A stretch of 5,743 bases of DNA. Origin: a virus (lineage: Duplodnaviria > Heunggongvirae > Uroviricota > Caudoviricetes). Position numbers and translations under genes: made by a program. The notes under the pieces were generated by a model that saw nothing but the letters and a program-made list of their open reading frames with translations, was not told the DNA's origin and did no database searches. The stretch's first letter is position 1. The number at the start of each line of letters is the position of its first letter. The stretch lies in the IMG/VR virus record IMGVR_UViG_2740892421_000003, one strand, 5' to 3'. Positions 3 to 5,743 of the stretch are shown here, piece by piece.

Positions 3-3000
3 TCATCGGCCTCATCGGCGTCTGCTTCAAAAGATGAGGCGACCAGACAAGCGTCAGCAGCGAAGGGCAGCGCCACGACGGCATCCACGAAGGCAACAGA
101 GGCTGCTGGCAGTGCGACGGCGGCATCTCAGAGCAAAACTACTGCTGAATCCGCTGCGACCCGTGCGGAAGCTGCTGCTGATCGTGCTGAAGAGATTGCC
201 GGTGCAGTTGCGATGGAAGACGCAAGCCTTACAACTAAAGGTGTTGTGAAACTTAGCAGTGCTGTTGATAGCACCAGTGAATCGCTGGCCGCAACGCCAA
301 AAGCAGTTAAAGCAGCCAATGACAATGCGAATAGCAGGGTGCCATCTAACCGAAAAGTTAACGGAAAAGCACTGACTGCGGATATAACATTAACGCCGAA
401 AGATATTGGTACTTTAAATTCAGTAACGATGTCTTTCTCTGGCGGGGCTGGGTGGTTCAAACTGGCTACGGTTACCATGCCACAAGCGAGTTCCATCGTT
501 TACATCGCATTGATTGGTGGCGCTGGTTACAACGTCGGTTCCCNNNNNNNNNNCACATTAACGCCGAAAGATATTGGTACTTTAAATTCAGTAACGATGT
601 CTTTCTCTGGCGGGGCAGGGTGGTTCAAACTGGCTACGGTTACCATGCCACAAGCGAGTTCCATCGTTTACATCGCATTGATTGGTGGCGCTGGTTACAA
701 CGTCGGTTCCCCACATCAGGCAGGCATTTCAGAACTGGTTCTACGAGCAGGCAATGGAAACCCCAAAGGAATTACCGGGGCTTTGTGGAAGCGTACAGCC
801 GTCGGATTAACGAATTTCGCCTGGATCAACACATCCGGCGATACATATGATATTTACGTTGAGATTGGCAATTATGCGACGAGTGTAAATATCCATTGGG
901 ATTGTACTGCAAATGCGTCAGTTTCTGTTTATACCTCGCCAACATATTCAGCGAGTAAGCCTTCCAGCGTTACCTATGGTGTTGTTTATACGATGTATAG
1001 CTCACATCAGAAACCTACACCATCAGATATTGGAGCACTGCCAACAACCGGAGGAACAGTTTCAGGTCCGTTGTCTGTTACAGGTGGATTAACTGGTTCA
1101 TTGAATGGTAATGCAAGTACAGCCACGAAATTGCAGACGGCAAGATCTATCGGTGGAGTTGTTTTCGACGGTTCTGCAAATATTAACCTTCCAGGTGTAA
1201 ACACTACGGGTAATCAGAACACCACTGGTAATGCTGCAACTGCTACAAAACTTCAGACTGCAAGAAAAATATCCGGTGTTCCATTTGATGGTTCTACTGA
1301 TATCACTTTAACCGCCGCGCATGTGGCTGCTTTTGCCAGAAGGGCAACGGATACATATGCCGATGCGGATGGTGGCGTTCCCTGGAATGCCGAATCAGGC
1401 GCTTACAATGTCACCCGCTCTGGCGACAGCTATATTCTGGTTAACTTCTATACCGGAGTCGGAAGTTGCCGGACCCTGCAGATGAAGGCGCATTACAGAA
1501 ATGGTGGTCTGTTCTACCGTTCTTCAAGAGACGGTTATGGTTTTGAGGATGACTGGGCAGAAGTTTATACCTCGAAAAATCTTCCACCAGAAAGCTACCC
1601 AGTCGGCGCACCAATCCCGTGGCCATCAGATACCGTTCCGTCTGGCTATGCCCTGATGCAGGGGCAGACTTTTGACAAATCTGCATACCCGAAACTTGCA
1701 GTGGCTTATCCGTCAGGCGTTATTCCTGATATGCGTGGCTGGACGATTAAGGGCAAGCCCGCCAGTGGTCGTGCCGTATTGTCTCAGGAACAGGACGGCA
1801 TTAAATCGCACACCCACAGCGCCAGCGCATCCAGTACGGATTTGGGGACGAAAACCACATCATCGTTTGATTACGGCACTAAATCCACGAATAACACTGG
1901 TGCACATACCCATAGTGTTAGCGGTACGGCTGCTTCAGCCGGTGCACATACCCATTCGATGACATTTGTTTCAGGTGGTTCCAGTGGTGCTCCGGGAANN
2001 NNNNNNNNAGGTGCTTTGTGGAAGCGTACAGCTGTCGGATTAGCGAATTTCGCCTGGATCAACACATCCGGCGATACATATGATATTTACGTTGAAATTG
2101 GCAATTATGCGACGAGTGTAAATATCCATTGGGATTGTACTGCAAATGCGTCAGTTTCTATTTATACATCGCCAACATATTCAGCGAGTAAGCCTTCCAG
2201 CGTTACCTATGGTGTTGTTTATACGATGTATAGCACACATCAGAAACCGACGCCGTTAGATATTGGAGCACTGCCAACAACCGGAGGAACAGTTTCAGGT
2301 CCGTTGTCTGTTACTGGTGGTATCACCGGAACATTAAATGGTAATGCAAGTACAGCAACGAAATTGCAGACGGCAAGATCTATCGGTGGAGTTGGTTTCG
2401 ACGGTTCTGCAAATATCAACCTTCCAGGTGTAAATACTACGGGTAATCAGAACACCACTGGTAATGCCGCAACTGCTACAAAACTACAGACGGCAAGAAC
2501 TATCGGCGGCGTGAGCTTTGATGGTACTGCAAATATTAATTTGCCAGGTGTTAATACGACTGGTAATCAGAATACAACAGGTAATGCGGCTACTGCTACG
2601 AAGTTGCAGACTGCGCGTACTATTAATGGGGTGTCGTTTGACGGTTCTAAAAACATTGAGCTAACTCCAAGGTCTATAGGCACGATCAACTCAGCAACAA
2701 TATCTTTTAGTGGTGGTGCCGGATGGTTCAAGCTGGCAACTGTAACCATGCCACAGGCCAGTTCCGTGGTTTACATAAGCCTGATTGGTGGTGCAGGGTA
2801 TAACGTTGGCTCCCCGCATCAAGCAGGCATCTCTGAGCTGGTTCTGCGTGCCGGAAATGGAAATCCAAAGGGTATTACTGGTGCATTATGGCGACGGACA
2901 TCGGTTGGATTTACTAATTTTGCATGGGTGAATACATCCGGTGATACCTATGATGTTTATGTTGAAATAGGTAATTACGCCACAGGTGTTAATATTCAGT

Positions 3001-5330
3001 GGGATTATACCAGTAACGCCAGCGTAACGATTCATACATCACCAACTTATACAGCGAATAAACCAACTGGTCTTACTGATGGAACGGTATATGTCATTTA
3101 CAGTTCGCACATTAAACCGACCGCCACGGATGTCGGCGCATTACCAATAACCGGAGGAAATCTCAACGGCGGTTTAACGGCTACTGGTGAGATCATTTCA
3201 AAATCGGCGAATGGTCTGCGCATTGCCTACGGAAGCTACGGATTCTTTATCCGAAACGATGGTTCAAACACATATTTCATGTTGACCAATTCGGGTAACA
3301 GCCTGGGAACCTATAATAGTTTAAGGCCGCTTATCATTAACAATGCCAATGGTGCTGTTACGATCGCTAATGGACTCAATGTTACTGGTGGCGTAAATGG
3401 TAGCTTGAATGGCAATGCTTCAACGGCTACGAAGTTGCAAACAGCGAGAAACATCAATGGTGTTAAGTTTGATGGTTCAGGCGATATCAATATTAATACA
3501 TTGGTATCTCGTGGCCGAGTTACGGCGTTAAGCGGCTCTACTCAAGGCACTGCTGGCATTCAAATGTATGAGGCGTACAACAATAGCTACCCGACCATGT
3601 ATGGCAACGTATTGCACATGAAAGGTGCGAGTGCTTCTGGTGAGGGCGAGATGCTTGTTGGCTGGAGCGGAACGGATGGTGCTCATGCACCGGTTTATGT
3701 TCGTTCACGCCGTGATACTTCGACAGCGAATTGGTCTGGTTGGGCGCAGGTCTATACCACTGCTCATAAACCCACAGCGAAAGATGTTGGGGCTGCACAG
3801 ACGTTTAGCGCGTCATACAGTACTGGGGCTGGCAACTGGACTACCGCTGAATTTATCGCATGGCTGAAGGAGCGTGGTGCTTTCGCCGTACCGTATTGGA
3901 TGATGAAAGGCTCTTGGTCATATGCCGACAATAAAATTATCACTGATACAGGTGTCGGCAATATTTGTCTTGCTGGTGCGGTTATCGAGGTTTTAGGTCA
4001 CGAAGGCGCAATGACCATCCGAGTTACTACGCCTACAACGACAACCGGAGGTGGTATTGCCAGTGCTCAGTTCACCTATATTAATCACGGTAGCGCGTAT
4101 GCCCCTGCCTGGCGCAGAGATTACAACACTGCTCTCAAACCCACTGCGGCTGATGTCGGTGCGTTACCGATTTCTGGCGGAACAATGACTGGTGTGCTGA
4201 CGCTGCAAAATGTGAGTCAGCCCCTCAAGACGCAAGGTGGAGGCATTCTGGCAAATGATGGAAATTTATACATTAATAAGTCGGGATTTGCAGGCTGGAT
4301 TGATGCGCTATTTATGAAAAACAGCGGCGGTACGATGTCCGGACAGCTTAAGATCCGCTCTACGGATGGGTTACGCATTTACGATGCGGCATACGGGATG
4401 ATTTTTCGCCGTTCCGAAAATAATTTTTACCTTATCCCGACAGCAAAAGACCAGGGAGAAAATGGTGATATAGGTTCGCTTCGTCCATTTTATGTAGATC
4501 TCACTAATGGCAGAGTAACAATGGGCAATGGTGCTGTTGTTAACGGTGGTCTTGGGCTGGGTGTGGTCAATGGTCTTGGCGGTAATTCCATTGTTCTGGG
4601 TGACAATGACACCGGCTTTAAACAGAACGGAGATGGCATTCTGGATGTTTACGCCAATAGCGCCCATGTTTTTAGGTTCGTTAATAGCACGCTGCAAAGC
4701 CTTAAGCCGTTGAGTGTAACGGGTGACATCACGTCAAGTGCGTGGGTTTACGCCAACCGTTTTTCCATCAACAGCGGCTCTGGCGCGTGGATAGATATGC
4801 GTAACCAGAACGTCATCTTCGGGAGGAACGCTGTAAGTACAAGCTCTGCACAAGCGTTGTTGAGACAAGACCACGCGGATCGCAAATTCTTCTTGGGTGG
4901 CTTGGGAAACAGTCAGTTTGGTTTTTACATGATCAACAACTCACGTACCGCAAACGGCACTGACGCTGCCGCTTATCTCCAGAACGACGGCACTTGGGTT
5001 TGCGCAGGCAACGGTAGTTTTAATGACGTTTACATCCGTTCCGACCGCCGTAGTAAGCGCAATATTCGCAAAATTGAGCGGGCGCTCGACAAGCTGGAGC
5101 AGATCGAAGGTGTTCTCTACGAGATTCAGGTCTGTGGCCGTTATGAGCAGTCTGGCGGCCTCATCGCTCAGGACGTCCAGAATGTTCAGCCTGAACTGGT
5201 AACGGTTGACCATAACGATCAGTCAGGAGAGCCTCGTCTGCGTCTTAACTACAACGGCGTTATCGGCATGTTGGTCGAGGCTGTCAAAGAGCTGCGCGAG
5301 GAAGTGCGCGAACTGAAGGCAAAAATGTAA
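3..5330 (+). CDS. Long (side) tail fibre protein, mosaic, with C-terminal intramolecular chaperone domain; 5'-partial (continues upstream of window); spans two N-run gaps
   Basis: Frame +3 has no stop codon from nt 3 to TAA at 5328-5330 (1775 sense codons in window). Translation upstream of the track's ATG at 213 reads [70 protein letters not shown], a typical fibre shaft, so 213 is an internal Met. Contains the Stf-type motif [25 protein letters not shown], 40-aa tail-fibre repeats, a tail-collar-like block, HTHS motifs, and an S-D-x-x-x-K C-terminal domain. Family call from memory, not a search. Confidence 0.9.
237..311 (+). other. Conserved side-tail-fibre motif ([25 protein letters not shown]), as recalled from lambda Stf and relatives
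   Basis: Direct translation of frame +3. The motif and preceding Ala/Ser/Thr-rich stretch resemble the central region of lambda Stf as I recall it (..[25 protein letters not shown]..). Confidence 0.7.
387..711 (+). repeat. Tandem direct repeat: 157-nt unit (387-543) repeated at 555-711, period 168 nt, copies separated by the 10-N run
   Basis: Both copies encode [52 protein letters not shown]. By manual alignment there is one mismatch (T449 vs A617, GCT vs GCA, synonymous). Confidence 0.85.
544..553. other. Run of 10 N (assembly gap or masked bases) inside the tail fibre ORF
   Basis: Literal nnnnnnnnnn in the sequence; flanked on both sides by the same 157-nt repeat unit. Confidence 0.99.
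778..1265 (+). repeat. Long direct repeat, copy A (~488 nt; partner at 2011-2498, in-frame offset 1233 nt)
   Basis: Manual alignment gives about 28 mismatches in about 488 positions (about 94% identity; needs computational confirmation). Encodes [49 protein letters not shown]...[17 protein letters not shown]...[12 protein letters not shown]. Confidence 0.85.
1101..1320 (+). repeat. Two tandem copies of the ~40-aa phage tail-fibre repeat (120-nt period)
   Basis: [43 protein letters not shown] followed by [27 protein letters not shown]. The GGT-AAT-GCx starts at 1107 and 1227 are exactly 120 nt apart. Confidence 0.8.
1599..1998 (+). other. Tail-collar-like domain followed by three His-x-His (HTHS) motifs; a lambda-Stf-type distal receptor-binding region found here in the middle of the ORF
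   Basis: [133 protein letters not shown]. Matches my recollection of the C-terminal region of lambda Stf and of tail-collar domains (..LPDMRGW..). The block ends exactly at the second N run. Confidence 0.75.
1999..2008. other. Run of 10 N (assembly gap or masked bases) inside the tail fibre ORF
   Basis: Literal N run. Left flank is the end of the HxH block; right flank starts in the middle of the repeated module (GALWKRT...). Confidence 0.99.
2011..2498 (+). repeat. Long direct repeat, copy B (partner of 778-1265)
   Basis: Same manual alignment as copy A. Protein differs at only about 7-8 residues (for example LTNF/LANF, SVSVY/SVSIY, TPSDIG/TPLDIG, GGVVFDG/GGVGFDG). Confidence 0.85.
2334..2680 (+). 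repeat. Three tandem copies of the ~40-aa tail-fibre repeat (120-nt period; units start near 2340, 2460, 2580)
   Basis: ..[40 protein letters not shown] / [40 protein letters not shown] / [27 protein letters not shown]. Nucleotide copies are diverged, mostly at synonymous positions. Confidence 0.85.
2664..3158 (+). repeat. Third, diverged copy of the ~230-aa fibre module (TPRSIG...[18 protein letters not shown]...[10 protein letters not shown]...[16 protein letters not shown]...[17 protein letters not shown])
   Basis: Collinear at protein level with 387-1058. Nucleotide sequence is clearly more diverged than the A/B pair (roughly three quarters identical by eye, not computed). Confidence 0.75.
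3213..4580 (+). other. Distal fibre region with two related units of about 60-70 aa (3213-3400 and 4368-4580; pattern GLRI..Y..G..FR....N.YF..T.....G...SLRP......NG.VT..NG) and small domains each ending in a KPT..D.GA junction
   Basis: [54 protein letters not shown] versus [55 protein letters not shown]. Protein-level similarity only; no nucleotide repeat. Confidence 0.5.
3405..3500 (+). repeat. Sixth, isolated copy of the 40-aa tail-fibre repeat
   Basis: [31 protein letters not shown] in frame +3. Confidence 0.75.
5040..5327 (+). other. C-terminal intramolecular chaperone / autoproteolytic domain (endosialidase-chaperone, peptidase S74-like); predicted cleavage after Ser encoded at 5040-5042, Lys at 5055-5057
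   Basis: Translation ..[102 protein letters not shown]. The S-D-x-x-x-K spacing and the GLIAQDV / LNYNGVIG / terminal helix signature match the self-cleaving C-terminal domains of phage K1F endosialidase and T5 pb1 as I recall them. Confidence 0.8.
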
Positions 5331-5336
5331 TCAAGG

Positions 5337-5366
5337 TGAATGGTGAGGGGCCACCCTCACCATTCA
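5337..5366 (+). terminator. Perfect hairpin (13-bp stem, 4-nt GCCA loop) 6 nt after the fibre stop codon; possible terminator or attenuator lacking a canonical U-tract
   Basis: TGAATGGTGAGGG-GCCA-CCCTCACCATTCA; all 13 positions pair (7 G:C). Downstream sequence is GGATATTCACATC, not a T run. Confidence 0.45.
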
Positions 5367-5382
5367 GGATATTCACATCAAA

Positions 5383-5388
5383 AAGGAG
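5383..5388 (+). promoter_or_regulatory. Shine-Dalgarno sequence (AAGGAG) for the downstream gene
   Basis: AAGGAG sits 7 nt upstream of GTG at 5396 (5 nt upstream of the out-of-frame ATG at 5394). Confidence 0.6.
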
Positions 5389-5395
5389 ATTAGAT

Positions 5396-5743
5396 GTGCC
5401 AATTGTCGGTGTTCCCGGTTGGATTGGGTCTTCGGCTGTCAGTGTGACAGGCCAGAGATGGATGAGTGCGGCTCGAACGGCGGTGCAACTGCCAGCGGCT
5501 GGTTCAATGTCTCAAATGGCCGGGCGATCTAAAGAAGTTCAGTACAGCATCGGTGCGAATCATAACTACAACAAAGACACACTGATCAACTATTTAAAAT
5601 CCCAGGGGGCGACGCCAGTCGTTGTTACCATTACAGGGGATCTGGTGTCGTCCAGTAGCGGCGTGCCATGTTTAGATTTCCCGAGTTCACTTACCAACTC
5701 TTATATCAGCCTTGTAATCAACGCAGGTGTGACTGTCTATGGA
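5396..5743 (+). CDS. Hypothetical phage protein, GTG start, 3'-partial (runs off window); function unknown
   Basis: Frame +2 is open from GTG 5396 to the window end (116 codons, no stop): (M)PIVGVPGWIGSSAVSVTGQRWMSAARTAVQLPAAGSMSQMAGRSKEVQYSIGANHNYNKDTLINYLKSQGATPVVVTITGDLVSSSSGVPCLDFPSSLTNSYISLVINAGVTVYG. The overlapping ATG at 5394 is in another frame and stops after 17 codons. Missing from the ORF track because it has no ATG start and no stop in window. Confidence 0.6.
   Translation, partial: MPIVGVPGWIGSSAVSVTGQRWMSAARTAVQLPAAGSMSQMAGRSKEVQYSIGANHNYNKDTLINYLKSQGATPVVVTITGDLVSSSSGVPCLDFPSSLTNSYISLVINAGVTVYG

Follow-up and report, generated by a model that had tools for sequence, protein, structure and literature searches.

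Known chaperone domains and the studied locus

The chaperone domain of the K1F endosialidase (endoNF, PDB 3GW6) is the holotype of MEROPS family S74 and is larger than the corresponding domains of phages T5 and S16. The catalytic dyad of this family consists of a serine and of a lysine five residues later (i+5), as in S911/K916 of endoNF and S587/K592 of MyRF (PMC8326128) and in S1264/K1269 of the T5 fibre protein pb1 (PMC4690869). Here, a stretch of 5,743 nucleotides from a virus of the class Caudoviricetes (IMG/VR record IMGVR_UViG_2740892421_000003), referred to as the window, was analysed for a tail-fibre gene that ends in such a domain. The last 96 residues of this fibre very probably form a Peptidase S74 intramolecular chaperone autocleavage (ICA) domain, predicted to cleave itself off and to free the fibre tip for a gp38-type adhesin, an arrangement of the T2/S16 type carried by an SSU5-like siphoviral phage-plasmid.

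In T5, the chain is cut between Thr1263 and Ser1264, and K1F is likewise cut N-terminal to its serine (PMC4690869), while the cut of MyRF was placed between P586 and S587 by mass spectrometry (PMC8326128). For S16 gp37, PMC7917993 gives the site as DLNVS^SDRRIKK (^ marks the cut), with the fPS phages (T4-like, Yersinia) aligned to it as DVYIR^SDGRLKI. The same paper, summarising Dunne et al. 2018, describes how removal of the intramolecular chaperone (IMC) exposes the hydrophobic tip of S16 gp37, where gp38 docks. An arginine 14 residues upstream of the serine, contributed by the neighbouring chain (R897 in endoNF, R1250 in T5), senses the folding of the shaft; it serves as folding sensor and oxyanion helper and is a feature of a phage subgroup that MyRF does not have (PMC8326128, PMC4690869). 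MyRF cleaves without this stalk arginine (PMC8326128). The variable part of the fold is a beta-hairpin 'tentacle', which is long in endoNF and about 20 Å shorter in T5, and MyRF has a compact 'donut' form (PMC8326128, PMC4690869).

The S74 domain of the window

The open reading frame (ORF) of the tail fibre occupies positions 213–5330 on the plus strand, with its stop codon in frame at 5328–5330. The features of its C-terminal end are the following.

5040–5327, plus strand: Peptidase S74 ICA domain, 96 amino acids (Pfam, profile matches, structure model and Foldseek)
5040–5042, plus strand: catalytic serine, by homology, at position 1 of the Pfam S74 profile
5055–5057, plus strand: catalytic lysine, by homology, at Ser+5 and equivalent to K916, K1269 and K592
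5157–5177, plus strand: GLIAQDV core motif of the S74 domain
5037–5042, plus strand: predicted scissile Arg-Ser bond, codons CGT TCC, by homology to S16, fPS phages, T5 and MyRF
5250–5324, plus strand: C-terminal amphipathic helix, predicted trimeric coiled coil driving trimerisation (modelled helix 105–129; role of the helix in T5 and MyRF)

Both RSDRRSK, which holds the dyad, and GLIAQDV are in frame with the fibre ORF, and 96 residues separate the serine, itself included, from the end of the protein. The domain thereby ends at the stop codon of a 1705-codon ORF, and a C-terminal placement was likewise found in nearly all of the 150 listed relatives. A first-pass annotation made from the sequence alone had named the serine and lysine of RSDRRSK, likened their spacing to that of K1F endosialidase and T5 pb1, and noted GLIAQDV followed by a terminal amphipathic helix. 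The residues, their coordinates and frame are correct, the i+5 spacing equals that of S911/K916 and S1264/K1269, and a helix is predicted where it had been expected.

Membership in the family, for which a profile search had been proposed as the check, was established with Pfam. PF13884 (Peptidase_S74, 'Chaperone of endosialidase') matched at E=3.2e-12 with 47 bits (curated cut-off 22), and the alignment on 5040–5204 is complete, covering positions 1–58 of the 58 in the profile and beginning at the catalytic serine. The match recurred when a longer fragment of the fibre was searched. Judged by this score, the RSDRRSK/S74 feature lies far beyond chance. As a single sequence, the domain matched S16 gp37 (6f45_A) among PDB sequences at E=8e-13 (phmmer), with SDRRIKK opposite SDRRSKR. 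When a family profile built from 17 homologues was run against PDB sequences, the matches were 6f45_A (8.4e-24), the 8jov tail fibre (1.1e-8) and the MyRF ICA domain 7dc3 (4.9e-6), followed by a weak match to the neck-appendage chaperone 3gud (E=0.1), the chain of which starts with SDERHK. In these alignments SDRRSK (5040–5057), which conforms to the S-D-x-x-x-K dyad motif of the family, stands opposite SDRRIK of S16, SDERLK of 8jov, ADLRAK of the MyRF S587A crystal construct and SDERHK of 3gud.

Searched exhaustively with HMMER, 1.84 billion cluster representatives gave 26,458 matches at E≤1e-3. Conservation and length were assessed in 148 proteins among the 150 best of these matches, aligned to the window, and the counts of relatives given below refer to this sample. 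The serine is present in 140 of the 148 relatives, while the aspartate and the lysine each occur in 144, and the motif S-[DEN]-x3-K is carried by 143. G45 and Q49 of GLIAQ as well as Pro56 are invariant (148/148), and A48 is kept in 146. The window site reads NDVYIR^SD, and the DVYIR strand preceding the serine also occurs in many relatives. The S74 ICA/IMC domain of the window is of an already known kind and not a special variant, and near-identical proteins in public databases have already been assigned PF13884.

Predicted structure

An AlphaFold2 (AF2) monomer model of the last 130 residues reached values of the predicted local distance difference test (pLDDT) of 87–96 across the S74 domain, and of more than 90 in the terminal helix. 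The model consists of a short helix (49–54), a beta-hairpin (58–65 and 68–75), a helix (77–83), a second beta-hairpin (88–92 and 99–103) and a terminal helix of 25 residues (105–129). As expected of the ICA fold, the monomer model shows a mixed alpha/beta part and, after it, a long C-terminal helix; this agrees with the Foldseek search against the PDB, in which only ICA domains gave credible matches. The best of them was the MyRF ICA domain 7dc3 (probability 1.00, template modelling score 0.62, root-mean-square deviation 2.9 over 110 columns). It was followed by the endoNF IMC 3gw6, which had a probability of 0.97–1.00 and was a weaker match, with E~1e-2 and a high root-mean-square deviation. 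Because the best structural match is MyRF, the short-tentacle form of the fold fits the domain of the window.

Comparison with described systems

The arrangement resembles most closely gp37 and gp38 of T2 and S16 (PDB 6F45), in which the distal fibre protein likewise ends in an S74 IMC and the next gene is likewise a gp38 with a Trp-bearing N-terminal docking domain; a polyglycine-rich receptor-binding domain is found in the relative whose adhesin is identical over the part seen in the window. The site motif also matches, as DVYIR^SDxRxK in the fPS phages and DLNVS^SDRRIKK in S16 according to PMC7917993. The two differ in that T2 and S16 are T-even myoviruses, whereas the present locus belongs to an SSU5-like phage-plasmid of about 105–120 kb; the IMC has 113 residues in S16 and 96 here, and the shaft just upstream is Mu S-like in the window.

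With endoNF the domain has in common the i+5 Ser-Lys dyad, the fold class and the trimeric C-terminal coiled coil. However, the domain of endoNF is larger, its beta-hairpin tentacles are long and its stalk carries the sensor Arg897, while the tentacles are short here and no arginine stands at −14. T5 pb1 (4UW8) is likewise a fibre and not a spike, is cut N-terminal to the serine of S1264/K1269 and carries a C-terminal coiled coil. It differs by its domain of about 133 residues, the tentacles of which embrace a bullet-shaped receptor-binding domain, and it binds the receptor itself, whereas in the present system a separate gp38-type adhesin would take over this task. The MyRF ICA domain (7DC3), a compact form without long tentacles, is the closest match in structure. 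It belongs to a eukaryotic membrane-bound transcription factor and remains at the membrane once cleaved, and its biological role is unrelated.

The tail fibre S of phage Mu with its assembly protein TfaMu (gpU; 5YVQ) is related through the shaft, in which the stretch of about 95 residues preceding the cleavage site shows homology to Mu S 340–434. Mu S goes on into a tip relying on a Tfa of its own gene; in the window the S74 domain stands in its place, and the next gene is not a Tfa gene.

Proposed maturation and alternative explanations

The analysis itself shows the membership of the domain in the family, its conserved residues, its predicted fold and its gene context; cleavage itself, the exact bond and the docking of gp38 are proposed by homology to these systems. 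Three copies of the ICA domain would associate by a coiled coil of their terminal helices, and this trimer would set the register of the preceding trimeric, beta-structured shaft and fold it. After trimer formation the lysine (5055–5057) would activate the serine (5040–5042), and the Arg-Ser bond would be cut, with the expected release of 96 residues (about 11 kDa) from each chain. The new C-terminus ...NDVYIR would then form the tip, and the gp38-type adhesin made from the next gene would dock there with its N-terminal domain. A cut at the Arg-Ser bond with a fragment of 96 residues is predicted because the characterised cases are cut N-terminal to the serine and DVYIR^SD of the window matches them. 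The first-pass annotation had given the fragment as about 95 residues, which is close, and the size becomes 96 if the cut lies before the serine as in T5, MyRF and S16. Cleavage one bond later, between serine and aspartate, would release 95 residues and leave a mature fibre ending in ...YIRS; Phi29 gp12 has been reported as a possible exception that retains the serine (PMC4690869), but with T5, K1F, MyRF and S16 all cut N-terminal to it, this position is unlikely.

Several points weigh against a self-cleaving S74 domain as proposed. In the sequence of the window, the sensor arginine is absent at −14 from the serine, where a valine stands, and an arginine is found at −1 instead, so cleavage may be coupled to shaft folding in a different way, as in MyRF. 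In addition, the structure was predicted as a monomer only, from an alignment of 17 sequences, and the gp38-type gene is cut off at the end of the window, at codon 116. Since MyRF cleaves without the stalk arginine, the valine is no argument against activity. The lack of an endoNF/T5-type sensor at −14 would also suit a domain that stays uncleaved on the mature fibre as a distal knob, or that is a decaying relic. Such an outcome is very improbable, as the catalytic and core residues are all intact and conserved across relatives, the domain is 96–99% identical in many independent phage-plasmids, the Gp38_N docking domain downstream needs an exposed tip, and the precedent of MyRF (PMC8326128) applies here as well.

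The small size had led to the suggestion of a minimal variant of the domain, which in its strong form would be truly unusual and altered in its mechanism. In favour of it, the 96 residues are fewer than in T5 pb1 (residues 1263/4–1396, about 133; PMC4690869), in S16 gp37 (the last 113 residues; PMC7917993) and in endoNF, and in structure the domain comes closest to MyRF with its short tentacles and not to endoNF. This suggestion was not upheld and has hardly any probability left. Among the 143 motif-bearing relatives, the length from the serine to the C-terminus has a median of 95 residues, with 44 proteins at 90–94, 50 at 95–99 and 13 at 100–104, which together make 107 of 143 at 90–104, so that about 95 residues is usual and most lie within 90–105. 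As the census consists of the best 148 matches to a 96-residue query out of about 26,000 representatives, it leans towards query-like lengths and speaks for commonness and not for the full distribution. Because the sample reaches down to about 40% identity and spans fibres of 100–5300 residues, the form of about 95 residues is common despite this bias. Furthermore, AF2 predicts every secondary-structure element of the ICA core, and short beta-hairpin tentacles, a known variable feature, explain the difference in size.

Beyond the reading of the last 96 residues as a self-cleaving S74 domain, a wider and rather doubtful idea can be put forward tentatively. The domain might represent a short-tentacle subtype without sensor arginine, in which cleavage is triggered by its own trimerisation, as in MyRF, and not by shaft folding. 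Together with the DVYIR tip and Gp38_N it might make up a portable cassette of three parts, exchanged between myoviruses of the T2/S16 type and siphoviral phage-plasmids of the SSU5 group, that could also be joined to otherwise Tfa-dependent shafts of the Mu type.

Downstream adhesin and intergenic hairpin

Two features follow the fibre gene in the window.

5396–5743, plus strand: gp38-type adhesin ('receptor-recognizing protein'), 5' part of 116 codons running off the window, with an N-terminal gp37-docking domain and conserved Trp (GW, QRW) (Pfam, 6f45_D, NZ_CP062914.1)
5337–5366, plus strand: perfect hairpin (GAATGGTGAGGGGCCACCCTCACCATTC region) in the spacer that separates the fibre stop codon from the gp38-like start, with a 13-bp stem and a 4-nt loop (RNA fold −29.6 kcal/mol, z=−4.4)

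The adhesin ORF starts with a GTG codon at 5396 and matches the Pfam families Gp38_N (E=1.5e-15) and GP38 (E=1.8e-26). S16 gp38 (6f45_D) aligned with it at E=3e-20, with GW(I/V)GSS and Q(R/N)W opposite each other and both Trp residues kept. A gp38-type adhesin with a Trp-bearing attachment domain is directly downstream of the fibre, as in the T2/S16 type of module. In the closed plasmid NZ_CP062914.1, a protein of 260 residues is 100% identical over the 116 residues of the window, contains a polyglycine-rich receptor-binding domain and matches the full GP38 profile at 1.4e-69.

The corresponding adhesin of Salmonella phage SSU5, SSU5_022 (L001 6750–7286; 178 residues), has only the Gp38_N docking domain of about 45 residues in common with that of the window. 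Its remainder is unrelated and lacks a polyglycine-rich domain. Retention of Gp38_N alone is what would be expected if this domain binds a conserved fibre tip, and the comparison indicates that adhesins are swapped in the SSU5 group while the fibre tip stays constant.

In Tfa-dependent fibres (Mu S/U, P2 H/G, lambda Stf/Tfa), an assembly gene stands directly downstream, and here this place is taken by the gp38-type gene. No Tfa-type gene, and no Tfa Pfam match, was found downstream in the window and in the two relatives examined, the remainder of the element not having been scanned. The genes further downstream in the relatives are holin and endolysin-like or unannotated. That the fibre would need no separate Tfa chaperone, as the first-pass annotation had it, therefore holds as far as no Tfa-type gene follows, but the fibre is not self-sufficient, as the next gene encodes the gp38-type adhesin. 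The S74 domain appears to be one half of a two-gene module with this adhesin, which the first-pass annotation had missed.

Because no T run follows it, the hairpin at 5337–5366 is not a canonical intrinsic terminator. SSU5 has no hairpin spacer, and its adhesin gene abuts the fibre gene.

Fibre gene and genomic relatives

The fibre itself comprises two further features.

213–5330, plus strand: tail-fibre ORF of 1705 codons including two 10-N gaps, a mosaic fibre of an SSU5-like phage-plasmid (Pfam; SSU5 tail fibre SSU5_021)
4749–5039, plus strand: distal shaft segment, the last strand of which, DVYIR, is the predicted C-terminus after cleavage and the predicted docking tip for gp38 (homology to Mu tail fibre S 340–434; site of PMC7917993)

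In Megablast searches, the region 4600–5743 showed 99.7% DNA identity to E. coli phage-plasmids of about 106–120 kb and 95% to Enterobacter, Citrobacter and Salmonella plasmids, and 92% to Salmonella phage SSU5, as far as the end of the fibre gene. By this placement the window comes from an SSU5-like phage-plasmid of Enterobacteriaceae. A T-even phage origin, which had been considered for the gp37/gp38 matches, was ruled out by it.

The ORF contains the Pfam domains Phage_fiber_2, Collar, gp37_C, Gp34_trimer and Peptidase_S74. The roughly 95 residues before the cleavage site (4749–5039) matched Mu S at E=7.3e-37 (5yvq_A, phmmer) and also lie within matches to PHROG profiles of distal fibre subunits from T-even phages. 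The similarity to Mu S breaks at ...GTWVCAG (GNW(L/V)C / WVC(A/G)G), after which Mu continues into its Tfa-dependent tip and the window into the S74 domain. This break clearly marks where recombination has joined a Mu-type shaft to the S74-gp38 module, in keeping with ordinary tail-fibre mosaicism. By tblastn the C-terminal module is present in 1517 phage records, among them RB69 gp37, fPS-90 and T5-like L-shaped fibres.

Two runs of ten N, at 544–553 and 1999–2008, interrupt the ORF, which remains in frame through both. The sequence 387–543 is repeated at 555–711 with 99% identity directly across the first gap, while 2010–2309, after the second gap, is 96% identical to 777–1076. The 56-codon duplication across the first gap is suspect and looks like unmerged contig ends; therefore, the length of 1705 codons may be inflated. 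It was also considered whether the 1705-residue ORF is a pure scaffold artefact. This is countered by a closed relative plasmid with an intact fibre ORF of 1638 residues (L002 2815–7731), because of which a very long mosaic fibre is regarded as real.

Domains typical of the distal end of a fibre also occur in the middle of the ORF, at 555–1997 before the second gap, namely gp37_C, Phage Tail Collar and an HxH 'Phage_fiber' repeat (HTHSASASS...AHTHSVSG...AHTHSMTF). Two origins are conceivable for this region, namely the in-frame fusion of a second tip module of the Tfa/T4 type, or two alternative alleles of the fibre having been joined during scaffolding. Six copies of a repeat of about 40 residues with the motif GNA(S/A), of the Pfam Phage_fiber_2 type, extend over 1107–3478, and internal duplications of 190–300 nt connect 777–1076, 2010–2309 and 2880–3179. 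The shaft of the fibre is composed of repeated, recombining modules.

Biological meaning

Beyond correct annotation the domain itself has little significance. The mature fibre would end at ...DVYIR, and host range would be set by the gp38-type adhesin encoded downstream and not by the fibre's own C-terminus. For engineering or expression of the receptor-binding complex, the IMC is to be kept in the construct and gp38 co-expressed. The locus is a further example of the exchange of tail-fibre modules among T-even phages, Mu-like phages and SSU5-like phage-plasmids of Enterobacteriaceae.

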